Assembly: GCA_001821395.1 (NCBI GenBank)
Contig: MHLM01000004.1
Location: forward strand, 32,001 to 96,000
Reading direction: 5' to 3'
Source: Candidatus Lloydbacteria bacterium RIFCSPHIGHO2_02_FULL_50_18
GTDB lineage: Bacteria > Patescibacteriota > Minisyncoccia > Phycocordibacterales > UBA6899
Length of the DNA: 64,000 nt
Every line of letters begins with the position of its first letter. Within the stretch, counting starts at the first letter, position 1. Of the stretch, positions 1,534 to 45,826 are shown piece by piece. The translations under genes were made by a program, and so were the position numbers. The notes below the pieces were generated by a model, which saw only the letters and a program-made list of their open reading frames with translations, ran no database searches and had not been told where the DNA came from.

Positions 1534-1671
1534 GCGGAGGGGGCGAGATGTTCGACGCCTACTGCGTCAGTACCCGTTTCCCATTTTCTCAACATAAGAA
1601 TGTCTCGAAAATAGGGGAGAACGGCTTCGAATCTCGCACGAAAGTCGAGCAGTCGACTTTCTCTCCTCCGC
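1534..1671 (-). repeat. tRNA-3'-end mimic mini-element, instance 1
   Basis: On the minus strand it reads: GCGGAGG acceptor-like stem; hairpin AAAGTCGA-CTGC-TCGACTTT; GCGAGATTCGAA; a 77-nt insert (module B, 1549-1625); then TCTCGCCCCCTCCGCA. That last part copies the T-stem/acceptor 3' strand of the tRNA at 1710-1796 immediately upstream. Module B is about 97% identical to 45097-45171. Confidence 0.5.
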
Positions 1672-1707: not shown

Positions 1708-1796
1708 TGCGGAGGGGGCGAGATTCGAACTCGCGGACCGTTTAACGGGTCGACAGTTTAGTAAACTGTTGATTTAAACCACTCATCCACCCCTCC
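1708..1796 (-). tRNA. type II (long variable arm), Ser-like tRNA whose canonical fold gives anticodon ACU; possibly aberrant or a pseudogene
   Basis: Manual fold: acceptor GGAGGGG/CCCCTCC, discriminator G73, D-arm GAT-GAGTGGTTTAA-ATC, anticodon stem ACAGT/ACTGT with loop TTACTAA, 17-nt variable arm, T-arm GCGAG-TTCGAAT-CTCGC. The architecture parallels tRNA-Ser(GCT) at 2392-2481. Confidence 0.55.
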
Positions 1797-1836: not shown

Positions 1837-2216
1837 GAGAGGGCGGGAATTGGTCACAAGTCATACCATCTCCAGTTAACTCTTTCTGCTCACAGAAGTT
1901 TCAAAGGTCAGTCCTTGGCCCTGCCTGCGCAGGCAGGTTTGAAAGGTCTCTCCTTGGAAACTGATTCGGAAGACCTTAACGAGAGATGGTATCACTAAGC
2001 GTATGCGGAGCAAGGCTCCTTATCCGTTAAGTGCACCACGGAGAGGGCGGGAATTTCTCGGCTTACAGCCGCAATACACCTTTGCGATTTATTCAGCATA
2101 AGAATGCTTCACAAATATCACCACGAGGAGTACTTCATTTTTCTAAGACGGAGTACCGTTAAGAAAAATTGGTCGCGCAAAGCTTTTCGAATCTCTTTGC
2201 GAGAGGGCGGATGCGG
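1837..2216 (-). repeat. array of degenerate mini-elements downstream of tRNA-Ser, each ending in a partial copy of the tRNA-Ser 3' end
   Basis: GAGAGGGCGG(GAATT) occurs at 1837-1851, 2041-2056 and 2201-2216; it is the reverse complement of the tRNA-Ser acceptor 3' strand/T-stem. An inverted copy TTCGAATCCCGCCCTCTC lies at 2329-2346. The insert next to it starts AGACGGAGGCG, as does the insert at 45256. Confidence 0.45.
2125..2178 (-). repeat. conserved intergenic hairpin repeat (family M2), copy 1
   Basis: Reads (g)AGTACTTCCATTTTTCTAAG-stem-loop-CTTAGAAAAATTGGTCGC. Two related copies lie at 34395-34449 and 35550-35600. Confidence 0.6.
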
Positions 2217-2391
2217 TCACGAGTTACTAAGCTTTTTATTTCGCTTCGCTCATAAAAATCTAAGTACTCTCGACCCCGACTCGGCTACGACCTTCGACGA
2301 GCTCAGGTCGGCTTCGCGCCTCCGTCTTTCGAATCCCGCCCTCTCGCGCAATGGCATATTAAAAAAGACCTTTCGGTCATTTTTAAGCCAT

Positions 2392-2581: not shown

Positions 2582-3271
2582 ATGCTAATTTGTGTCGAGA
2601 ACTATTTATGGGGGTTTCACGTGGATCTTTGTCATCTCGCGGTAGAAAAAAACGTGCGGGCGTTCATGAATATTATTGTGGAGACTTGCCGCAGGCTTGA
2701 CGTCGAGGTACTCCTCTGCGAGGGTGATCGTGTTGAATATGGCGGTATTTACAGCAATGGATATTTTGGCAACATAAGCCCTCTCTCTGTGCGTTACGCA
2801 GTTGCCGTTGGAAAGCCGACGTCTCTGTGGCTTCCTGTTGCGCTGCATGAATTCTGTCACTTGGAACAATGGGCTGAGGGCGCTCCCGTTTGGATCGATC
2901 AGGAGTTTTCAAAGACAATGTGTGCCTTTGATCTGGTGATGGAATGGTGTGGGGGTAAGGACCTGTCAAAAGAAGAGGTAATCCGACTTGTTCGCCTTGC
3001 GCGCGAGTTGGAGCGGGATTGTGAAGAACGCGCACTCCGGAAGATCACGCAGTTTGAGCTTCCGCTCGATCCTCTCGAGTACACACAAAAGGCAAATAGC
3101 TATTTGTTCTTTTATACCGCCATGATTGAGACGAAACAATGGTACGTCCGTGCGCCGTATGAGGTTCCCGAAGTGTGGACGTTGATGCCCACCATACTTT
3201 TGCCGGCGGGCGATTACGATACGCTTCCTGGGGAATACCTCGAGGCATTCAAGAAGCATCTCTTTGCATAG
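2582..3271 (+). CDS. hypothetical protein with an HExxH motif; possible metal-dependent hydrolase
   Basis: 229-aa ORF. It contains LHEFCHLEQW, reminiscent of HELCHL in DUF45/M48-like hydrolases. No other recognisable domain. Confidence 0.4.
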   Translation: MLICVENYLWGFHVDLCHLAVEKNVRAFMNIIVETCRRLDVEVLLCEGDRVEYGGIYSNGYFGNISPLSVRYAVAVGKPTSLWLPVALHEFCHLEQWAEGAPVWIDQEFSKTMCAFDLVMEWCGGKDLSKEEVIRLVRLARELERDCEERALRKITQFELPLDPLEYTQKANSYLFFYTAMIETKQWYVRAPYEVPEVWTLMPTILLPAGDYDTLPGEYLEAFKKHLFA

Positions 3272-3292
3272 CCGCGATATATTCGCGGTTTT

Positions 3293-3961
3293 TTAATGCG
3301 CGACGGCAAGCGCAAGAATACGCTTCGGTTTCCAGACCCTTACGACCCGCCGCGCCTCACTCATCGTGGCGCCGGTGGTGATGACATCGTCGATAAGGAT
3401 GACCGTTTTTCCGAATAGTTTTTCGCCGTCGCGGATGTCGAATGCATTGGCGACATTTTGGGCGCGCTTTACTCTTCCTCTCGCTTTTACCTGCTGGAGG
3501 ACCTCTTTCTTCTTATAGAGCACGTTTCTTGGGGCGGAGATGCGCATCCCATCCGCCTTTCCGCATTTTACGATAGTTTCGGCGATGATCGCTGCATGGT
3601 TGTACCCGCGCGACGCAAGCGCTTTCTTATTCGCAGGAATAGGGAGCAGTATGATCTCTTCACCAAGATGTTTCCCCCCTTTTATGAGCTGCTTGAAGAA
3701 TTCACGATAGAGTGCCGTTCCGAAATATCGTCCAAGCGCACGCCTCCGGTGGTATTTGAGTGCCCAGATCGCTTTTTTGACAAGTGGTTGTTGATAGTCA
3801 AAGAGTATCGCCGTCGTCCCCGAAAGCGCCTTCGCTTTTGTGGTAATCGCGCGTTCGCAGATGGCGCAGAGAGCGCTTCCTTCCCGACCACAGCCGATAC
3901 ACCGTTCGGGGAAAATAAACGAAAGAATGTCTTCCCATATCATATTTACCACAGTGTACAT
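3293..3961 (-). CDS. comFC: ComF family protein (ComFC, phosphoribosyltransferase-like competence protein)
   Basis: N-terminal CxxC...CxxC zinc finger (CIGCGREGSALCAICER) and a C-terminal PRTase motif (VILIDDVITTGATM). It is divergent from pilM. Confidence 0.8.
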   Translation of the reverse strand: MYTVVNMIWEDILSFIFPERCIGCGREGSALCAICERAITTKAKALSGTTAILFDYQQPLVKKAIWALKYHRRRALGRYFGTALYREFFKQLIKGGKHLGEEIILLPIPANKKALASRGYNHAAIIAETIVKCGKADGMRISAPRNVLYKKKEVLQQVKARGRVKRAQNVANAFDIRDGEKLFGKTVILIDDVITTGATMSEARRVVRVWKPKRILALAVAH

Positions 3962-24060: not shown

Positions 24061-24713
24061 GCGAGGAAAAAGGAAACGATAAAGCAAAAGCGAAGCCCCC
24101 CGTCATTATCTCGACCGGGTTGGGGCAACAGGTCGGAGAGATCGTCCTCATCGTATTATTCCTTTCTATTCTTTCCGGTGCGGTAAGTTTGCTGCTCGGT
24201 TTTTTTGGTGATGGCGACATCTACGGTCTTAGGGCTACGTTCGCACATCTTTATGCGGTCGCGAATATGGTAGCAACAGTCATTGCGATGGTCGCTATCG
24301 TCATTGCAATCTATTCCTTCATGCGTATCAGTGAGATCGCGGGGGAAGAGACCAAAAAACTCGGGCTCGCACTCAATTGGAATAGTGAACGGAAGCAAAA
24401 AAATGCGCGCTGGTCGCGCGTAGAAACTTATATGACATCACTGAATCCCTCCGATTGGAAGATCGCGATACTCGAAGCGGATAATATTCTCGACGAGGTG
24501 GTTGAGCGGATGGGTTATATCGGTGAAACACTGGGTGAGCGCATGAAAAAGATCGAGGCGAGTGATTTCCCGTATCTGGAGGATGCATGGACGGCACATA
24601 AGACGCGTAATTCGATCGCGCACAAAGGAACGGATTATGAGCTTAGTCGAAGTGAGGCGGAGCGCGTGATCAACATGTATCATCGCATATTTACGGAATT
24701 GGGTTATTTGTAG
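24057..24713 (+). CDS. membrane-anchored protein with a C-terminal HEPN-like (Rx4H, DUF4145-like) domain
   Basis: Start overlaps the gatA stop (ATGA). Two N-terminal TM helices and a soluble C-terminal domain containing TRNSIAH (Rx4-6H) in a helical context. Confidence 0.45.
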   Translation: MSEEKGNDKAKAKPPVIISTGLGQQVGEIVLIVLFLSILSGAVSLLLGFFGDGDIYGLRATFAHLYAVANMVATVIAMVAIVIAIYSFMRISEIAGEETKKLGLALNWNSERKQKNARWSRVETYMTSLNPSDWKIAILEADNILDEVVERMGYIGETLGERMKKIEASDFPYLEDAWTAHKTRNSIAHKGTDYELSRSEAERVINMYHRIFTELGYL

Positions 24714-24814
24714 GAGAGATTTGATTTTGAACTGAAATATGCTATAAATTGCATACCGTCGATGTATGCAGCATACCTCGACGGTACTCGGATGAATTGG
24801 CGCTTCGCTCATTT

Positions 24815-24867
24815 TCGTGATGATGTTCATAAAAGCAAGCACGCTTTCTTTTATGAACATCATCACG
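24815..24867. terminator. long perfect hairpin (20-bp stem), probable bidirectional terminator
   Basis: TCGTGATGATGTTCATAAAAG...CTTTTATGAACATCATCACGA. Confidence 0.55.
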
Positions 24868-24902
24868 AAAGATCTGCATATTGCGCCGACTCATCATCGT
24901 TT

Positions 24903-24979
24903 GTCGACGTAGCTCAGTTGGTTAGAGCGCGGGACTCATAAGCCCGAGGTCGGAGGATCGTTCCCTCCCGTCGACACCA
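24903..24979 (+). tRNA. tRNA-Met(CAU); the anticodon stem carries three consecutive G-C pairs, so it could be the initiator
   Basis: Acceptor GTCGACG/CGTCGAC, A73, CCA encoded, anticodon loop CTCATAA, anticodon stem CGGGA/GCCCG. Confidence 0.8.
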
Positions 24980-25111
24980 TCCAATAGGCATTATCGCGTT
25001 GGTAGTGGACTATCGGTGAATAATTTGCAGTGGTAAGAAGAAAATCCTTCTTTTCACCGCGGCATTCGCAAAAAATGATAATAGATGCTATTCTCATTTT
25101 GTCGCTTATTT

Positions 25112-25185
25112 GCGGTGGTAGCTCAATTGGTTAGAGCACCCGCCTGTCACGTGGGAGGTTGCGAGTTCGAGTCTCGTCCGCCGCG
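25112..25185 (+). tRNA. tRNA-Asp(GUC)
   Basis: Acceptor GCGGTGG/CCGCCGC, anticodon loop CTGTCAC, T-arm GCGAG-TTCGAGT-CTCGT, G73; CCA not encoded. Confidence 0.85.
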
Positions 25186-25193
25186 CAAATACA

Positions 25194-25219
25194 AAAAAAC
25201 TGCTTTTGCAGTTTTTTTG
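25194..25219 (+). terminator. rho-independent terminator after tRNA-Asp
   Basis: AAAAAAACTGC-tttt-GCAGTTTTTTT. Confidence 0.7.
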
Positions 25220-25234
25220 TGTTTGCACGGTGGA

Positions 25235-25392
25235 GGAAGCATCTGCATGCTTCCGACGAGACTCGAACTCGCCATCACCATGATGAGTACTTCCAATTTC
25301 ATACTCTCTGTAGTCGTTGAAATTTAGGTCGCTCCATAAAGCCTGCGATGACGATCTCGAATAAGCTTCGCTTCTCGTCCGTCCCGTAAATA
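25235..25392 (+). repeat. tRNA-3'-end mimic mini-element, instance 3 (downstream of tRNA-Asp)
   Basis: Hairpin GGAAGCAT-CTGC-ATGCTTCC; GACGAGACTCGAA, the inverted copy of the tRNA-Asp T-loop/T-stem; a ~105-nt insert ending ACGATCTCGAATA; then TCTCGTCCGTCCCGTAAATAC, an 85% copy of the last 21 nt of tRNA-Asp including the downstream AAATAC. Confidence 0.5.
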
Positions 25393-25415
25393 CAAAAAGT
25401 ACCTAAAGGTACTTT

Positions 25416-25484
25416 TTGTTCTTGTTGCGGGACCTGGAATCGAACCAGGGCCTTCAGGTTATGAGCCTGACGAGGTACCGCTCC
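25416..25484 (-). tRNA. tRNA-Met(CAU) elongator type, or tRNA-Ile2 if lysidinylated
   Basis: Acceptor GCGGGAT, anticodon stem TCAGG/CCTGA with loop CTCATAA, T-arm CCTGG-TTCGATT-CCAGG; 69 nt, followed by a hairpin/T-run terminator at 25390-25412. Confidence 0.75.
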
Positions 25485-25588
25485 TCTATCCCGCTATATT
25501 CACACCACGGTCAACTTTGTTTGATACGCGGATTGTAGCCAAAAAATCGATTTTTCGCAAGCGCGAATCTTTGGTATGCTATAGCAGT

Positions 25589-26209
25589 ATGAACGCGCTC
25601 GAAAAATTGATGCATTCTCGCCTAGCAAACATTTTACTCGGTACCTTCCTTTTTACTCTCTGGATGCTCTTCGTGTGGGTGCATATTCGTGCATTCATTG
25701 ATACGGACAAGTTCGCGTATCTGGTCTTTTGTGTTTCAGAGTCTTTACAGGCAATTCTTTTCCTTTTCCGCTCGATGCCAAAAGTGGTATCCATGGACCC
25801 CTTCGATTGGCTCGTTGCGGGAGGGGGGACACTCACTCCGCTTTTGTTGCGTCCGACGGACGTGCTTTTATGGGGGCACGGGGACATCATCGTTGTCGGC
25901 GCGGTGATCATCCAGATCATTGCATTGCTTTCGCTCAATAGGAGTTTTGCGCTCGTCGCTGCAAACAGATCGATCAAGACGCTTGGCGCGTATCGTATTG
26001 TGAGGCATCCAATGTACGCAAGCTACATTTTTCTTTTTTCAGGATATTTTTTGCTCAATGCGTCGATGATGAATGCGGGGCTGATCATCTTTGCTTGGGT
26101 ATTCATGGGCCTTCGACTTATAAGGGAAGAGAAGCTCTTGTCGGAAGACGTTGCATACCAGGAATACAAAAAACAGGTCAAATGGAGGCTGATTCCGTTT
26201 GTTTATTGA
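25589..26209 (+). CDS. isoprenylcysteine carboxyl methyltransferase (ICMT/PEMT) family membrane methyltransferase
   Basis: C-terminal signature RIVRHPMYASYIFLFSGYFLL...EEKLLSEDVAYQEYKKQVKWRLIPFVY with multiple TM helices. Confidence 0.7.
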   Translation: MNALEKLMHSRLANILLGTFLFTLWMLFVWVHIRAFIDTDKFAYLVFCVSESLQAILFLFRSMPKVVSMDPFDWLVAGGGTLTPLLLRPTDVLLWGHGDIIVVGAVIIQIIALLSLNRSFALVAANRSIKTLGAYRIVRHPMYASYIFLFSGYFLLNASMMNAGLIIFAWVFMGLRLIREEKLLSEDVAYQEYKKQVKWRLIPFVY

Positions 26210-26302
26210 AAAATTGAACATTTAGAAGAAATAGTGTACGATTTTGCTTGTTGTTCCATTTGCCTGCTTGATATTTACTGTTCAGCTGTTTGTTGCAGAG
26301 AA

Positions 26303-26337
26303 TATTTGAAGTGCCGTCGTAGCTGTTTTGGTAGATA
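26303..26337 (+). pseudogene. degenerate tandem copy of the 5' ~30 nt of tRNA-Thr(GGU), including 10 nt of its upstream flank
   Basis: ATTTGAAGTGCCGTCGTAGCT occurs at 26303 and again at 26339. The first copy continues GTTTTGGTAGATA against CAGCTGGTAGAGC in the real tRNA. Confidence 0.6.
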
Positions 26338-26348
26338 ACATTTGAAGT

Positions 26349-26424
26349 GCCGTCGTAGCTCAGCTGGTAGAGCATCTCCATGGTAAGGAGAAGGTCCCCG
26401 GTTCGATCCCGGGCGACGGCTCCA
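26349..26424 (+). tRNA. tRNA-Thr(GGU)
   Basis: Acceptor GCCGTCG/CGACGGC, anticodon stem TCTCC/GGAGA with loop ATGGTAA, T-arm CCCGG-TTCGATC-CCGGG, CCA encoded. Confidence 0.85.
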
Positions 26425-26432
26425 TGATCGGG

Positions 26433-26500
26433 ATAGTGTGCCGCCTTAGCTCAGTTGGCAAAAGAAAGTCAGACAGCTCACTCGTTACGAGTGTTGAGGA
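26433..26500 (+). pseudogene. pseudo-tRNA: 5' part plus anticodon-arm-like copy of tRNA-Thr(CGU), lacking a T-arm
   Basis: The 26-nt ATAGTGTGCCGCCTTAGCTCAGTTGG is identical to 26529-26554. CAGCTCACTCGTTACGAG matches the CATCTCACTCGTAACGAG anticodon arm of the real tRNA. No T-arm or acceptor 3' strand follows. Confidence 0.55.
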
Positions 26501-26534
26501 AGATGGTGTAAAATAGTGAACAATTGAATAGTGT

Positions 26535-26610
26535 GCCGCCTTAGCTCAGTTGGTAGAGCATCTCACTCGTAACGAGAAGGTCCGCAGTTCGATCCTGCGA
26601 GGCGGCTCCA
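26535..26610 (+). tRNA. tRNA-Thr(CGU)
   Basis: Acceptor GCCGCCT/AGGCGGC, anticodon loop CTCGTAA, T-arm CCGCA-GTTCGAT-CCTGCG, CCA encoded. Confidence 0.85.
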
Positions 26611-26746
26611 AGTAAATAGTTTCGCTCAGTTGGTAAGCCAAGTCCGCAAAGCCAGACACTGGGTTGGCTTTTTCGTAGCAGTGTCGCCCACCGGCGACGC
26701 ACCACACAACTCGTCTTCTCCGCTACGCTGCGAAAACGATCTCGAA

Positions 26747-26800
26747 TAGAGCATCTCACTCGTAACGAGAAGGTCCGCAGTTCGATCCTGCGAGGCGGCT
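26747..26800 (+). repeat. direct duplicate of the 3' 54 nt of tRNA-Thr(CGU), an attR-like scar
   Basis: AGAGCATCTCACTCGTAACGAGAAGGTCCGCAGTTCGATCCTGCGAGGCGGCTCT is identical to 26557-26609 except the terminal CT versus CCA. It is preceded by ACGATCTCGAAT, the same module end seen at 25356. Confidence 0.8.
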
Positions 26801-26923
26801 CTAGAAAAAGAACGTAGTATTTTTTTGTCCGCCTCAAGAAAATAACTGCTTGTTTTCTGGCAGGATCGAATAGCGAAGCTAAAAAGCCGCGCATATGCGC
26901 GGCTTTGTGTACTCACTCATTTC

Positions 26924-27403
26924 TCATGAAAGTTTTCCGGAGAAGAATAAGCGTCGAAGGATGCAGGGAATGAGGAGTATATTCCCCAGCAGAAAGAGTA
27001 GCGACCCCATCCATCGGCAAATGTCTCCGATGCTGACGAGATTGACTCCTCCCTCGAAAGGGTAGTCGAGCCATTTGCCCCACCACCTGATCGCGATACC
27101 TGGCGCGCCTTCCGGTATGTACTTCTCCCAATCGGGGAAATCGACCCGAATATGATCTGCGAGAAAGAGCAGCTTTCCGTCGGAAACGAATTTGCGCGGA
27201 GTCCCGTAGTTGGTCATGATAAATCCGGGTGTTTCAGAAATGACCGGCATAACTCCGTCGTTCACTTCGACCACAACTCCGTTCATGACGATCCCCCATG
27301 CATTCAATGCCAGGCCGGTCACAACAAGAAGGGCGAGCATGGTATCAACGAGACCCCACATCGTACGATCTCTCGTCAAAGAGAGTGTGTTTTTCAATCC
27401 CAC
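26924..27403 (-). CDS. hypothetical membrane protein
   Basis: 159-aa ORF with N- and C-terminal hydrophobic segments; no catalytic motifs recognised. Confidence 0.35.
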   Translation of the reverse strand: MGLKNTLSLTRDRTMWGLVDTMLALLVVTGLALNAWGIVMNGVVVEVNDGVMPVISETPGFIMTNYGTPRKFVSDGKLLFLADHIRVDFPDWEKYIPEGAPGIAIRWWGKWLDYPFEGGVNLVSIGDICRWMGSLLFLLGNILLIPCILRRLFFSGKLS

Positions 27404-27581
27404 TGAAGTCTCCTGTGTAATTTATCTAGTGTAATTATATCTCAATTTATTCAATTTGTCAATAATACCGTAATACTTCGTAAGACTCGTATGGTCTTTC
27501 GGACGTCGGAAAACGTTGGAGATGAGTCATGATGGGCTTGTTGTTCTTTACATTTTGTTTCTCACGTGTTACTCATAGTTT

Positions 27582-34375: not shown

Positions 34376-34394
34376 AGCTCTCCTCGGCACCACG

Positions 34395-34449
34395 GAGAGT
34401 ACTTCCATTTTTCTAAGTGGATGACCACTAAGAAAAATTGGTCGCTCGG
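34395..34449 (-). repeat. hairpin repeat family M2, copy 2
   Basis: GAGAGTACTTCCATTTTTCTAAGTGG-atga-CCACTAAGAAAAATTGGTCGCTCGG. Confidence 0.6.
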
Positions 34450-35549: not shown

Positions 35550-35600
35550 GTGACCAATTTTTCTCAGCGGTACTCCGCTTTAGAAAAATGAAATGCCCTC
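35550..35600 (+). repeat. hairpin repeat family M2, copy 3
   Basis: GTGACCAATTTTTCTCAGCGG-tact-CCGCTTTAGAAAAATGAAATGCC. It is directly preceded by GCGCCTCGTGATG, a member of the GCCTCGT motif family. Confidence 0.6.
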
Positions 35601-35694
35601 TGTGGTACATCAAAAATATTTCGGCCGGCATATTGACATAATCAGTTATTTTCATAGGATGAGTATTGGAAGAGTTTGAAAAGGAGAATTGACC

Positions 35695-44841: not shown

Positions 44842-44941
44842 GATGATCTCATTATAATCCCATGATGACTTGAAAAATAGGGCGAATTGGCTATACTGAG
44901 CCGACTGTTCTAAGACGGTTTTGTTTTAGGCTTTATATCAT

Positions 44942-45014
44942 TGCGGGTTCGTCTAATGGTAGGACATCGCCCTCTGGAGGCGAGTATTGGGGTTCGAGTC
45001 CCTGACCCGCAGCA
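44942..45014 (+). tRNA. tRNA-Gln(CUG)
   Basis: U1-A72 acceptor (TGCGGGT/ACCCGCA), anticodon stem TCGCC/GGCGA with loop CTCTGGA, T-arm TGGGG-TTCGAGT-CCCTG, G73. Followed by hairpin GAAAACACCCC-ttttaat-GGGGGTGTTTTC. Confidence 0.85.
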
Positions 45015-45051
45015 AATGAAAACACCCCTTTTAATGGGGGTGTTTTCATTT

Positions 45052-45189
45052 GCGAGGAGAGGAAGCCATCTGCATGGCTTCCGGCAGGGACTCGAAGCCG
45101 TTCTCCCATATTTTCGAGACATTCTTATGTTGAGAAAATAGGAAACGGGTACTGACGCAGTAGGCGTCGAGATTCCCTGACCCGCAGCA
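45052..45189 (+). repeat. tRNA-3'-end mimic mini-element, instance 2 (downstream of tRNA-Gln), carrying module B
   Basis: Hairpin GGAAGCCAT-CTGC-ATGGCTTCC; CAGGGACTCGAA, the inverted copy of the tRNA-Gln T-loop/T-stem; module B at 45097-45171, about 97% identical to 1549-1625 in the opposite orientation; then ATTCCCTGACCCGCAGCA, the tRNA-Gln T-stem/acceptor 3' strand. Confidence 0.55.
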
Positions 45190-45234
45190 GCCGCACAAAA
45201 CCACTCTGTATGGAGTGGTTTTGTTTTGCGGTTG

Positions 45235-45442
45235 CTCGCGGGTCAGGGACTCGAAAGACGGAGGCGGTCTACGCCGCCACTTTCCTAAGTGCGGTGTCGC
45301 CGAGCGACATTGTTTTCTTATGAGTAAGCGAGTTAGAAAACAAGAAGTACTCTTGTGGTGCCGGGGTCGAGAGCACTTAGGCTTTTGGCTGCCTTGCGCC
45401 AAAATATTTAGTGACTCGTGATCAAGTTTGACCCGTAGACAT
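45235..45442 (+). repeat. second tRNA-Gln-derived mini-element with a different insert (module C)
   Basis: CTCGCGGGTCAGGGACTCGAA (inverted copy); an insert starting AGACGGAGGCG, as at 2217-2326 in reverse complement; a degenerate terminal copy TTTGACCCGTAGACA. Preceded by a long hairpin at 45175-45232 built from the tRNA-Gln 3' end and its complement. Confidence 0.4.
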
Positions 45443-45547
45443 GTCGTGCTCTTATGATGCGCGTTCTTTTTTAAAAAATATTTTGAGAACAAAAAGAAGC
45501 CTATTTTGTGGTTAAAAAAACCGCAAGCCTTTACTTGCGGTGATATT

Positions 45548-45826
45548 TCAGGGAACACTAATGGTATTGCGGCCGAATGGCCACGACGTGCAGACATAAA
45601 GGGTTATACTTTTTCCTTGCGGCGAAGTTGCCGAGACAGTTAGGCGCGCCGAGTCGCCTCGTACACAACCAGACATGATAAGTATTGATTTGTCGATGAC
45701 TTTTATGTTCGTATAGCCGAACGGCTCGAGTGTCTGGTTGGCGATGTCATCATTTACAAAATAGCCCCGGGTGCCAAGCGCAAGTATCATCAACAATGTG
45801 AATGCTACGCCGATTTTGTGTAACAT
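45548..45826 (-). CDS. small secreted hypothetical protein
   Basis: GGAGGG SD 8 nt upstream of the ATG; signal-peptide-like MLHKIGVAFTLLMILALGTRG; terminator at 45500-45540. Confidence 0.45.
   Translation of the reverse strand: MLHKIGVAFTLLMILALGTRGYFVNDDIANQTLEPFGYTNIKVIDKSILIMSGCVRGDSARLTVSATSPQGKSITLYVCTSWPFGRNTISVP

Follow-up and report, generated by a model that had tools for sequence, protein, structure and literature searches.

The tRNA gene tyrT of Escherichia coli is followed by RtT repeats, reportedly a 178-bp unit repeated 3.14 times. The RtT units overlap a small ORF (tpr). To our knowledge, they have been an isolated, unexplained curiosity since the late 1970s, and we know of no reported E. 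coli counterpart of the upstream head units described below. Genomic islands and prophages integrated at tRNA genes by tyrosine integrases are said to carry a different kind of repeat, the att repeat. Partial tRNA copies beside tRNA genes are routinely taken as fossils of integration and are used for delimiting genomic islands.

Integrated elements or CRISPR activity have also been given as the source of strain-specific prokaryotic tRNA fragments that confuse annotation (van der Gulik et al. 2023, PMC9897764). Within the Patescibacteria, tRNA genes bear group I introns, with a "divergent group I" intron in tRNA-Thr(GGU), according to a passage of PMC13011429 that cites Castelle et al.

In this study, we analyzed a 64,000-nt stretch (the window) of a Candidatus Lloydbacteria (Parcubacteria/CPR) genome, in which two tRNA-Thr genes are surrounded by partial tRNA copies. 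A sequence-only reading of the locus had taken these copies as the footprint of repeated integrase-mediated insertion and excision. We favor, with a probability of about 55%, an operon of two tRNA-Thr genes in which partial copies of its own tRNAs make up the leader, the spacer and the trailer; the copies would then be tRNA-derived operon modules, not integrase scars, and most of them conserved parts of the operon.

Results

The tRNA-Thr locus and its neighborhood

ARAGORN and the Rfam tRNA model identified two intact tRNA-Thr genes, which are 83% identical and lie 186 nt apart:

26349-26424, plus strand: tRNA-Thr(GGU), intact (66.9 bits)
26535-26610, plus strand: tRNA-Thr(CGU), intact, CCA encoded (63.3 bits)

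Neither program called any of the fragments as a tRNA. An assembly error is not the source of this arrangement. A JGI contig obtained independently (L001) is identical, and an ENA contig (L004) is identical to the window up to 26789, with only its last 30 nt differing, at the contig end. Contigs from the same population agree on the repeat arrangement, and the downstream DUF5317-like protein has the same gene neighborhood in 11/11 contigs encoding it.

The adjacency of the ICMT gene and the two tRNA-Thr genes is kept in L087, L090, L093 and L095, together with type-1 and type-2 units (described below). In the syntenic relatives with 5' pseudo-halves, the flanking ICMT protein is only 52-62% identical to that of the window. 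A GatA scan of the genome collection, in which the closest species representatives were just 53-57% identical, was informative solely on the conserved tRNA cluster.

A candidate promoter was recognized by reading the sequence behind the ICMT gene:

26214-26242, plus strand: putative operon promoter P1, beginning 5 nt past the ICMT stop codon

P1 consists of a -35 element TTGAAC (26214-26219), a 17-nt spacer and a -10 element TACGAT (26237-26242), and would act as a sigma-70-type promoter. The motif TTGAAA/TTGATA-N17-TACGAT also occurs immediately 3' of the ICMT stop codon in L087, L090, L101 and L102, and related -10 hexamers are present in L093 and L095. In L105, L113 and L145, where the upstream gene has no assignment, a P1-like arrangement precedes tRNA-Thr(GGU). 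A consensus promoter scan returned an alternative that overlaps P1, TTGAAA-18-AATAGT.

Upstream units carry the 5' end of the local tRNA

Two kinds of unit precede the tRNA genes, and a second candidate promoter was read from the sequence between the genes:

26277-26312, plus strand: type-1 leader unit 0, 36 nt, a degenerate version of unit 1 (repeat family D5)
26313-26348, plus strand: type-1 leader unit 1, 36 nt (repeat family D5, 36-nt period, 83%)
26433-26493, plus strand: type-2 pseudo-tRNA (repeat families D2 and I3)
26485-26514, plus strand: putative internal promoter P2 for tRNA-Thr(CGU)

The copy of the tRNA-Thr(GGU) 5' part that had been noticed in tandem with the gene was confirmed as unit 1. 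Its first 12 nt (GCCGTCGTAGCT) are the 5' end of tRNA-Thr(GGU), its last 7 nt (ttgaagt) are the immediate 5' flank of that gene, and its middle is a conserved core, GTTTTGGTAGATAACAT. The type-1 core TTGGTARATAACAT was found once in the window and, in the 8 related loci that have it, solely upstream of tRNA-Thr genes; 13 units were aligned. Unit 0, which the sequence-only reading had not listed, is missing in L101, a relative with 89% ICMT identity, indicating that the copy number of leader units differs between close relatives. There is one type-1 unit in L101, two in the window and three in L095 and L111, and exact tandem pairs occur in L145 and L138. We also considered the type-1 core as a promoter and as a binding site. 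TTGGTA (-35) and TAACAT (-10) have no partner at proper spacing and the distance to the tRNA ranges from 8 to 55 nt, which contradicts a promoter; inspection by eye for a DnaA or IHF site gave only 7/9 DnaA-box matches.

The type-2 unit begins with an exact 26-nt repeat (26433-26458 = 26528-26553), which comprises 7 nt of flank and 19 nt of the tRNA-Thr(CGU) 5' end. The sequence-only reading of 26433-26500 had the length of the repeat and the missing T-arm right, but split the repeat into 8 and 18 nt. The repeat is followed by a conserved insert (GCAA..CAGACAG) and a perfect hairpin, CACTCG-TTA-CGAGTG (26479-26493). Positions 26481-26493 are a 13-nt perfect reverse complement of the genuine anticodon arm; the anticodon-arm-like piece reported earlier is thus present, but as an inverted and not a direct copy. 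Homologues of the type-2 unit were aligned from L090, L113, L126 and L145 (two copies in L145), so that it is kept in 5 lineages, and its 5' strand equals the local tRNA in 4 of the 5.

This match to the local gene extends to the upstream units as a whole. Their first 9-19 nt are almost always the local tRNA's own 5' end, and six different acceptor sequences are matched by local units (GCCGTCG, GCCGTTG, GCCGTTT, GCCAATG, GCCTGGT and GCCGCCT). The 5' pseudo-halves recur upstream of tRNA-Thr in relatives whose surrounding intergenic DNA is unalignable, and the cores specific to type-1 and type-2 units are conserved in lineages with 52-62% ICMT identity and further. Units analogous to the 5' copies also flank other tRNAs. 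These results do not support an integrase origin of the 5' copies. The comparison of syntenic loci that had been proposed as a check found both kinds of 5' unit again in relatives, an outcome that the sequence-only reading had itself named as speaking against it; at the 3' side, it found an "empty" arrangement in L087.

Since the units lie downstream of the conserved, putative sigma-70-type promoter, they would be placed in a transcribed leader or spacer. The type-2 unit probably provides the -35 element of the internal promoter: in P2, TTACGA is the loop side of the type-2 hairpin and is separated by an 18-nt spacer from the -10 element TAAAAT (26509-26514). The equivalent position holds TTGCGA-18-TAAGAT in L145 and TTGCGA-17-TATATT in L126, while L113 and L090 have different promoter-like pairs slightly downstream of it. 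The consensus scan missed P2 because TTACGA fits just 3/6 positions.

The fragments could instead be neutral junk, that is, decaying pseudogenes of tandem-duplicated similar tRNAs conserved through gene conversion only. Two such similar, closely spaced genes are a substrate for unequal exchange, the copy number fluctuates, exact tandem duplicates exist, and the leader and type-2 units form RNA folds whose stability does not exceed that of shuffles (z about 0). However, the conserved parts are those unlike tRNA, namely GTYTTGGTAGRTAACAT, GGCAA..CAGACAG and the perfected inverted anticodon hairpin. These cores are conserved where the neighboring intergenic DNA is unalignable, indicating that conversion from the tRNA cannot maintain them. 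Neutral decay also sits poorly with the strict polarity found over 163 tRNA contexts (below), and we regard it as quite unlikely.

A 55-nt tRNA copy follows a structured insert behind tRNA-Thr(CGU)

The region downstream of tRNA-Thr(CGU) is composed as follows:

26611-26635, plus strand: 12-nt spacer and 13-nt D-arm-like piece (26623-26635, CGCTCAGTTGGTA, family D3)
26636-26746, plus strand: insert core Y (class B trailer body), 111 nt, assigned by homology to the L126 insert
26747-26801, plus strand: 3' fragment, an exact 55-nt copy of tRNA-Thr(CGU) positions 20-74 (= 26554-26608)
26802-26880, plus strand: native tRNA trailer, followed by a class A trailer element truncated to its 5' part (alignment to L087, L142 and L146)
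26883-26906, strandless: perfect 12+12 palindrome AAAGCCGCGCAT/ATGCGCGGCTTT (inverted-repeat family I5)

The 3' fragment spans the 3' side of the D-arm, the anticodon arm, the T-arm and the acceptor 3' strand, without the final CA. It is an exact direct repeat, as had been read, although of 55 and not 54 nt; the sequence matched twice in the window against 0 expected (100 shuffles). With the exact 26-nt 5' repeat reaching to 26553 and the 55-nt repeat starting from 26554, the two abut inside the D-loop of tRNA-Thr(CGU). Between the two 55-nt copies lie 138 nt. Simple tandem duplication was rejected as the source of the repeat, as these 138 nt are not duplicated on either side.

The D-arm-like piece ends with TA, the same TA that starts the 3' fragment. 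Y holds two hairpins, the first terminator-like and with a U-run (26635-26673), the second stable (26681-26700), and its conserved tail ends in GCGAAAACGATCTCGAA. The second hairpin is significant (-14.6 kcal/mol, z -4.4) and the first alone is not (z -0.2). The 21-nt tail is 90% identical to an element behind tRNA-Asp in the window. BLAST of Y, X and flanks against 150 loci returned no Y homologue; the single homologue of Y and the 3' fragment among these loci, in L126, was spotted by eye. It belongs to another lineage, shows compensatory changes in both hairpins and occupies a different position of the tRNA sequence, and its counterpart of the D-arm-like piece derives from the anticodon arm (CATCTCACTCGTAA). 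The 138-nt insert is missing in other genera (L087, L090, L093 and L095); with the 3' fragment it makes up 193 nt, which the window lineage may have gained or the relatives may have lost.

Behind the 3' fragment, the sequence at 26802-26880 matches that immediately behind the tRNA in L087. An A/U hairpin comes first, followed by CCGCCTC (26829-26835), which is complementary to the acceptor 3' strand, then by a hairpin whose loop is AACUGCUU and by GCAGGATCGAA, which is complementary to the 3' half of the T-arm; the CAGGATCGAA motif of this stretch is common to class A elements. When the end of the 3' fragment is included, the stretch folds as a three-way junction (-32.4 kcal/mol, z -2.9). The palindrome that follows, to which L093 has a similar sequence, probably acts as a terminator in both directions, for the tRNA operon and for the convergent DUF5317-like gene.

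We then weighed whether the 55-nt repeat is a scar left by integrase or Campbell-type homologous insertion and unrelated to the 5' copies. In this account, a circular element carrying the 3' part of tRNA-Thr(CGU) recombined with the gene, and all but 138 nt were later deleted. The repeat has the formal signature of integration: it is an exact direct repeat of the 3' part that extends to the tRNA 3' end, and the alignment with L087, the corresponding empty site, places the original flank after the distal copy. The genes downstream of the tRNA also differ among relatives (DUF5317, NUDIX, a 211-aa gene or none), which makes the site a variable spot. The other expectations fail. No integrase was found from -14 to +7 kb of the locus, nor any recombinase in the Pfam list for 12624-34060 of the window, and no ORF of note lies between the repeats, the minus-strand mechanical ORFs in the 138 nt having no Pfam match. 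By exact matching in the collections searched, neither the 30-nt T-arm/acceptor piece of the repeat nor the core motif of class A was present in any viral contig (0 for each). Among about 50 tRNA-Thr(CGU) loci, there was no kb-scale att pair and no distant tail copy, and insert sizes are always small, which does not give the series expected from random decay. Moreover, Y is kept with compensatory changes in L126 at a different location within the tRNA, and the same layout with shared body classes occurs behind other tRNAs. The integrase reading of the locus is partly supported, and a scar is an unlikely explanation of the 3' repeat. Of the two outcomes suggested earlier, an element that was lost or one that is itself miniature, the miniature one is nearer the evidence.

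Other candidates were rejected. Class A or Y bodies as group I introns, with the left arm as internal guide, are too small (about 100 nt with two hairpins), and the upstream tRNA is already complete. A split or permuted tRNA formed from the outer 5' half and the outer 3' half is contradicted by the L126 3' fragment, which lacks the acceptor strand, and by type-2 units that occur without any 3' fragment. Self-cleaving ribozyme classes gave no Rfam match.

Similar modules occur at other tRNA genes

We performed a census of 163 Parcubacteria tRNA contexts in which exact copies of at least 12 nt were counted. Copies of the 5' head were found 22 times upstream and once downstream of the tRNA. Copies of the 3' tail showed the opposite polarity, with 22 direct and 14 inverted copies downstream vs 0 direct and 1 inverted upstream. 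The tail copies always lay within a few hundred nt of the tRNA end (positions 110-360). Many of them close structured trailer elements of about 150 nt that are supported by covariation. In the window, such tail-bearing elements are located behind tRNA-Ser(ACT), Ser(GCT), Asp and Gln, and small structured inserts equivalent to Y were found behind Ser, Gln, Asp and Met tRNAs. In the class A structure, 93.6% of cells are paired, and 22 pairs show double changes compared with 9.7 +/- 2.0 in shuffles. Modules of this kind thus surround many tRNA genes of these tiny groundwater bacteria.

Apart from tRNAs, Rfam searches of four stretches and seven relatives returned a single group I intron, at another place in L111, and spurious microRNA and leader matches that are due to the long inverted repeats. 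Our search of the literature on tRNA-flanking repeats in CPR bacteria and on RtT found nothing specific.

The trailer bodies themselves may travel. Under this explanation, Y as well as the bodies of classes A and D would be small mobile elements, non-autonomous and homing to tRNA genes, inserted at TA and/or the T-loop of a tRNA copy, with arms taken from the target and partial copies as by-products. A duplicated TA bounds Y both in the window (GGTA|Y|TAGAGC) and in L126 (CGTA|Y|TAACGAG), at differing tRNA positions, and a 13-14-nt left piece is present alike in both. Class D bodies behind tRNA-Gln and tRNA-Ser(ACT) in one genome are 87% identical, with arms that fit each local tRNA, and the same body classes recur behind different tRNAs in different genomes. 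However, none of the elements is bounded by terminal inverted repeats of its own, neither a transposase nor a reverse transcriptase was seen, every copy is next to a tRNA, and just two copies of Y are known. Mobility also leaves the upstream head units unexplained, and we know of no mechanism that produces inverted arms derived from the target. We consider this explanation improbable.

Discussion

The partial tRNA copies are conserved and polarized, with 5' heads upstream and direct and inverted 3' tails downstream, and are typical of Parcubacteria tRNA genes. They may have originated by local partial duplication, via slippage and unequal exchange between repeats, and by inversion of the anticodon and T arms on a hairpin template. 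Head and tail segments would stay identical to the functional gene through ongoing exchange with it, each module retaining a conserved core of its own. Because identity blocks of 12-19 nt are short for RecA-type conversion, the co-variation of the heads may instead stem from a distinct mechanism, selection on the heads to pair with the 3' strand of the acceptor. The co-variation of the copies with the live tRNA acceptor stem offers a natural experiment on gene conversion versus RNA-pairing selection.

At the 3' side, the 55-nt repeat and the 138-nt insert would form a trailer unit like the RtT repeats of E. coli tyrT, and by analogy with RtT such units could be released or stabilized by tRNA end-processing enzymes. 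The 55-nt fragment may itself be a non-functional relic, since Y lacks a closing left arm and the fragment lies behind a terminator-like hairpin.

A further, tentative possibility, which we rate well below even odds, is that Parcubacteria possess modular RtT-like RNAs and 5' pseudo-half leaders, with arms taken from the flanked tRNA gene (copies of that tRNA's 3' half in both sense and antisense) and bodies that move between loci. If true, this modular family would be either a new kind of mobile element templated by tRNAs or a dedicated device for processing tRNA precursors or controlling their quality, and would give a context for the unexplained RtT repeats of E. coli.

If most copies here are conserved parts of tRNA operons, the rule of thumb for delimiting islands would fail for a large bacterial radiation. 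That CPR genomes, streamlined to about 1 Mb, have the RtT architecture at many tRNAs suggests that this architecture is under selection, and many independent CPR examples are available for working out its role.

Compared with known systems, the copies resemble the fragments of PMC9897764 in being partial, non-canonical tRNA sequences that adjoin canonical genes, but they are conserved across genera, polarized and not called as tRNAs. The Patescibacteria group I introns share the host group and the tRNA with this locus. In contrast to them, both window tRNAs are uninterrupted and the fragments lie outside the genes; the Rfam Intron_gpI model had no match in 24500-27500. A roughly 215-nt insertion immediately 3' of the GGU anticodon was observed in L094. 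With the att repeats of tRNA islands, the locus shares a direct repeat of the tRNA 3' part around inserted DNA and the original flank after the distal copy. It differs in lacking an integrase and in the insert, which is 138 nt, conserved, structured and without a match in the viral scans. Integration would not predict inverted tail copies or upstream 5' copies.

The RtT repeats (E. coli tyrT-tyrV, RttR, RF00391) belong to a host of a different phylum and have no sequence similarity to the units described here. The RF00391 model, which scores 133-138 bits on E. coli, had no match at E <=1 in 24500-27500 or at E <=5 in 1300-2600 and 44900-45600, so the link is architectural only. There are also several body classes here, serving Thr, Ser, Gln, Asp and Met tRNAs, and the Y unit differs from RtT in having a terminator-like hairpin and no complementary left arm. 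The architecture is nevertheless alike. In both systems, units on the same strand stand behind tRNAs with a period of about 150-190 nt and terminate in an exact repeat of the tRNA 3' end, which is 19 nt long in E. coli and 55 nt long in the Y unit. The tail copy pairs with an upstream sequence (GGGGAAGGAT) complementary to the T-stem 3' strand and the start of the acceptor, and this pairing closes a small multi-hairpin RNA in which the acceptor 3' strand stays single-stranded. A closing helix was found in classes A and D and between the tail copy at this locus and the CCGCCUC/GCAGGA that follows it, and was not found inside Y itself. The class A and D elements of the window and its relatives thus show exactly the RtT layout together with its closing helix.

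Organization of the tRNA-Thr locus

We found two intact tRNA-Thr genes with both ARAGORN and the Rfam tRNA model, neither of which called any partial tRNA-Thr copy at the locus as a tRNA.

Genes and partial copies at the tRNA-Thr locus
26277-26312: degenerate second type-1 unit
26313-26348: type-1 unit of 36 nt, repeating the 12-nt start of tRNA-Thr(GGU) and the 7 nt ahead of it
26349-26424 (+): intact tRNA-Thr(GGU)
26433-26458: 5' direct repeat, exact over 26 nt with 26528-26553 (7-nt flank plus 19 nt of tRNA-Thr(CGU))
26479-26493: hairpin after the 26-nt copy, including a 13-nt perfect reverse complement of the real anticodon arm
26535-26610 (+): intact tRNA-Thr(CGU)
26747-26801: 3' direct repeat, exact over 55 nt with 26554-26608

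The sequence-only reading had described a partial copy ahead of each gene and one downstream. The copy ahead of tRNA-Thr(GGU) is present, with 12 nt of the gene and a 7-nt flank repeated, and the second type-1 unit had been missed. The 26-nt repeat ahead of tRNA-Thr(CGU) is exact, but it divides as 7 + 19 rather than 8 + 18, and its anticodon-arm copy is inverted. The downstream copy was borne out, at 55 nt; it matches twice in the window, where shuffles give an expected 0. With the 5' repeat ending at 26553 and its 3' counterpart starting at 26554, the live tRNA-Thr(CGU) gene is the exact junction of both repeated pieces.

The best explanation, which we hold at a probability of about 0.55, is that the locus is a tRNA operon built with tRNA-derived modules. 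Pseudo-halves bearing a head (a copy of the tRNA 5' end) would lie upstream, in leader and spacer, and an RtT-like trailer unit bearing a tail (a copy of the 3' end) would lie downstream; the modules would arise, and stay in register, through local duplication combined with exchange with the live genes.

Genomic context and synteny

The arrangement recurs in independent assemblies of the same population (L-numbers denote contigs or loci of this population or of relatives). The JGI contig L001 is identical, and the ENA contig L004 is identical up to 26789. At L004 4733-4772 (window 26790-26826), nine differences fall in the contig's final 30 nt, partly inside the 3' fragment and partly past it, and may reflect either strain variation in the fragment or an assembly tip.

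The locus context is ordinary chromosomal. The gene order is ligA, gatC, gatA, a tRNA Met/Asp/Met cluster, ICMT, two tRNA-Thr, a DUF5317-like gene, a methyltransferase and a class A PBP, and the same neighbourhood was found in 11 of 11 contigs with a neighbouring DUF5317-like protein. The nearest species representatives of GatA are Parcubacteria (53-57% identity), and a public source lists the flanking ICMT-family protein as hypothetical, from a Rifle-aquifer MAG of Candidatus Lloydbacteria. In the homologue match list, the nearest ICMT-family homologues below ~50% identity come from Pseudomonas, Methylobacter and Nitrosomonas, so this Parcubacteria clade may have gained the ICMT gene adjoining the tRNA-Thr operon by horizontal transfer.

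Relatives were found via ICMT homologues (L087, L090, L093 and L095/96 at 52-62% identity; L101 and L102 at 69-89%). They keep the order of ICMT then two tRNA-Thr genes, with surrounding tRNA blocks inverted or duplicated in some. Relative to the window, the tRNA Met/Asp block (24903-25495) is inverted in L090 and L093 and the entire ICMT-Thr-Thr block in L087, and L096 has an additional inverted copy of Thr, Thr, Met, indicating that the tRNA cluster is a rearrangement hotspot.

Upstream units carry heads that follow the local tRNA

A putative sigma-70-type promoter, TTGAAA/TTGAAC-N17-TACGAT (window 26214-26242), is conserved immediately past the ICMT stop, and the leader units, lying downstream of it, are presumably transcribed. 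Type-1 units consist of the local tRNA head plus GCTGTYTTGGTAGRTAACAT. They precede tRNA-Thr in L101 (1 unit), L090, L087 (2), L095 (3), L094, L128, L145 (2) and, in more divergent forms, in L111 (3), L142, L138 (2 exact), L108 and L122. The 14-nt type-1 core occurs once in the window and, among 100 loci, is confined to tRNA-Thr loci. Type-2 units comprise the head, TAGCTCAGTTGGCAA, a purine-rich stretch, CAGACAG and the perfect hairpin CACTCG-TTR-CGAGTG, and lie ahead of tRNA-Thr(CGU) in L090, L113, L126 and L145 (two exact 96-nt copies). Initiator tRNA-Met has type-2-like head units in five lineages, with the anticodon arm inverted or perfected into a palindrome.

The first 9-19 nt of the units nearly always equal the local tRNA 5' end, despite lineage differences in that sequence; six acceptor variants are matched by local unit heads, with the L090 type-2 unit as sole exception. 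Conservation between lineages resides in the unit parts unlike the tRNA, and the window already differs in copy number from its 89% relative. This pattern fits tandem units with continuing exchange with the gene. The 5' copies had been attributed to integration, but heads that track the local tRNA and a non-tRNA part conserved across lineages do not suit decaying integration scars, and comparison of syntenic loci showed that the 5' copies recur in relatives at 52-62% ICMT identity.

The inverted anticodon loop of type-2 units is TTACGA or TTGCGA, and a good -10 hexamer lies 17-18 nt past it in the window (TAAAAT, 26509-26514), L145 and L126. These elements suggest a putative internal promoter, which the consensus promoter scanner did not call, and type-2 units might thereby supply a promoter.

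The 55-nt repeat and its insert

Past the distal copy, 26802-26835 aligns with the sequence directly 3' of the tRNA in L087, and the complement of the acceptor 3' strand co-varies (CCGCCTC in the window, GAGCCGTCTC in L087). Compared with L087, the window therefore has 193 extra nt, namely the 55-nt repeat and a 138-nt insert, which may have been either gained or lost through exchange between the repeats.

Parts of the 138-nt insert
Part 1: 12-nt spacer
Part 2: 13-nt D-arm-like piece, with TA at its end
Part 3: 111-nt core Y, with a terminator-like hairpin and U-run, a stable second hairpin and a conserved tail

The second hairpin of Y has a predicted energy of -14.6 kcal/mol (z -4.4). Y has one homologue, in L126, whose two hairpins both show compensatory changes; on either side of this homologue stand an anticodon-arm tRNA piece that differs from the window's and a 30-nt fragment starting in the anticodon loop. 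TA is shared at both Y junctions, in L126 as in the window. These TA junctions, together with the modular trailer bodies, suggest a small tRNA-homing mobile element, an origin that we nevertheless consider unlikely.

An insertion by recombination, through an integrase or through homologous exchange with a small circle, is similarly improbable. The 3' repeat had been read as an integrase footprint, and the direct repeat and displaced native flank do agree with integration scars; among the features that gave a clear result these are the only ones in common. No recombinase gene was found from ~14 kb upstream to 7 kb downstream, and exact-match scans of viral contigs gave 0 matches to a 30-nt piece of the repeat and 0 to the class A core motif. 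A second copy of the 30-nt tRNA core was found in 0 of 45 loci returned by a metagenome scan, and no locus examined had a distant tail copy; existing tail copies stay close to the tRNA end, a few hundred nt away at most (positions 110-360). The 55-nt fragment, sited behind a terminator-like hairpin, may be a relic.

A third insert of ~100 nt (tgagacgcg..ctcctgtaagg) was observed in L099/L100 (1313-1420) and in L126 downstream of the 3' fragment. In these two unrelated loci it splits the tRNA 3' fragment exactly at the T-stem 3'/acceptor 3' strand boundary, which suggests insertions nested within tail copies.

Trailer elements behind other tRNAs

We compared every tRNA of the window with the window by BLAST and found copies like those of Thr behind four other tRNAs.

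Trailer elements in the window
1534-1671 (-): behind tRNA-Ser(ACT)
1838-2345 (-): three successive elements behind tRNA-Ser(GCT)
25224-25380 (+): behind tRNA-Asp
45053-45190 and 45229-45440 (+): two successive elements behind tRNA-Gln

These elements are structured, ~140-210 nt long and without a match to any Rfam family. Each contains a perfect inverted copy (up to 18 nt) of the adjacent tRNA 3' half, and usually a direct copy too.

Trailer layout, in order
1: terminator hairpin, sometimes
2: stretch that can pair with the acceptor 3' strand
3: hairpin with an A(U/A)CUGC(A/U)U loop
4: perfect reverse complement of T-loop and T-stem 3' strand, up to 18 nt
5: two-hairpin body, ~100 nt
6: direct copy of the tRNA T-stem 3' and acceptor 3' strands

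Body classes recur behind different tRNAs in different genomes, with A and D common to several loci. Class D bodies behind Gln and Ser(ACT) are 87% identical in the window, and the class also lies behind Asp in L094 and L095. Class A occurs behind Ser(GCT) and Gln in the window, Asp in L124, Met and Thr in L142, and Thr in L099, L111, L123, L146 and L110. The class A consensus fold, built from six sequences behind tRNA-Thr (L111, L123, L142, L146, L110 and L099; e.g. L111 1400-1629, minus strand), has 41 pairs with 93.6% of cells paired, and its closing helix uses the tail copy of the tRNA 3' end. Double-sided changes affect 22 of the 41 pairs, where shuffles gave 9.7 +/- 2.0 and slid controls 2-7, which is strong support from covariation. 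The class A trailer is a candidate new structured RNA family in Parcubacteria. The 5' part of a class A element lies at window 26827-26880, cut short ahead of the DUF5317-like gene, and is predicted to form a three-way junction together with the end of the 55-nt fragment (-32.4 kcal/mol, z -2.9).

A hairpin module of ~55-65 nt (..AUUUUUCU-loop-AGAAAAAU..GUACUC..GUGGUG) was seen in at least four places (34382-34449, 35552-35606, inside 2040-2199 on the minus strand, and 45300-45366), two of them away from tRNA genes, and it occurs in L139 too. ARAGORN assigned the anticodon ACT (ACU) to the tRNA-Ser at 1709-1796 (-), and a normal tRNA-Ser(GCT) lies 600 nt away. Except in tRNA-Arg(ACG), bacterial tRNAs seldom have A at position 34.

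Census of head and tail copies

After masking neighbouring tRNAs, we counted exact copies of at least 12 nt across 163 distinct Parcubacteria tRNA contexts.

Copies on the expected and control sides
3' tail, direct: 22 downstream (expected), 0 upstream (control)
3' tail, inverted: 14 downstream (expected), 1 upstream (control)
5' head, direct: 22 upstream (expected), 1 downstream (control)
5' head, inverted: 0 upstream (expected), 0 downstream (control)

That the partial copies are neutral junk seems to us a poor prospect. If the locus is an operon built with tRNA-derived modules, tRNA-like 3' ends could recruit tRNA end-processing enzymes, and the modules might offer alternative pairing with the acceptor 3' strand.

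Comparison with known systems

In the literature we found no description of such tRNA-flanking modules in CPR bacteria. The group I introns in Patescibacteria tRNAs (PMC13011429) are something distinct from these modules. In L094 (3396-3687), tRNA-Thr(GGU) is interrupted right after the GGU anticodon by an insertion of ~215 nt, undetected by the Rfam group I model and by ARAGORN; its position matches that of the 'divergent group I' introns of CPR tRNA-Thr(GGU) that PMC13011429 reports with reference to Castelle et al. On visual inspection, an ORF upstream (2765-3352) contains a LAGLIDADG-like motif.

The E. coli tyrT-tyrV operon has the same layout as the trailers. RF00391, the Rfam family of its RtT repeats, matched no element in the stretches searched, indicating a shared architecture and not family membership. 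The RtT unit contains GGGGAAGGAT, complementary to the T-stem 3' strand and the start of the acceptor, followed by a body and by the 19-nt tRNA-Tyr 3' end; unlike RtT units, the Y unit has no left arm. The closing helix of RF00391 pairs exactly those two pieces, GGGGAAGGAT and the 19-nt tRNA-Tyr 3' end.
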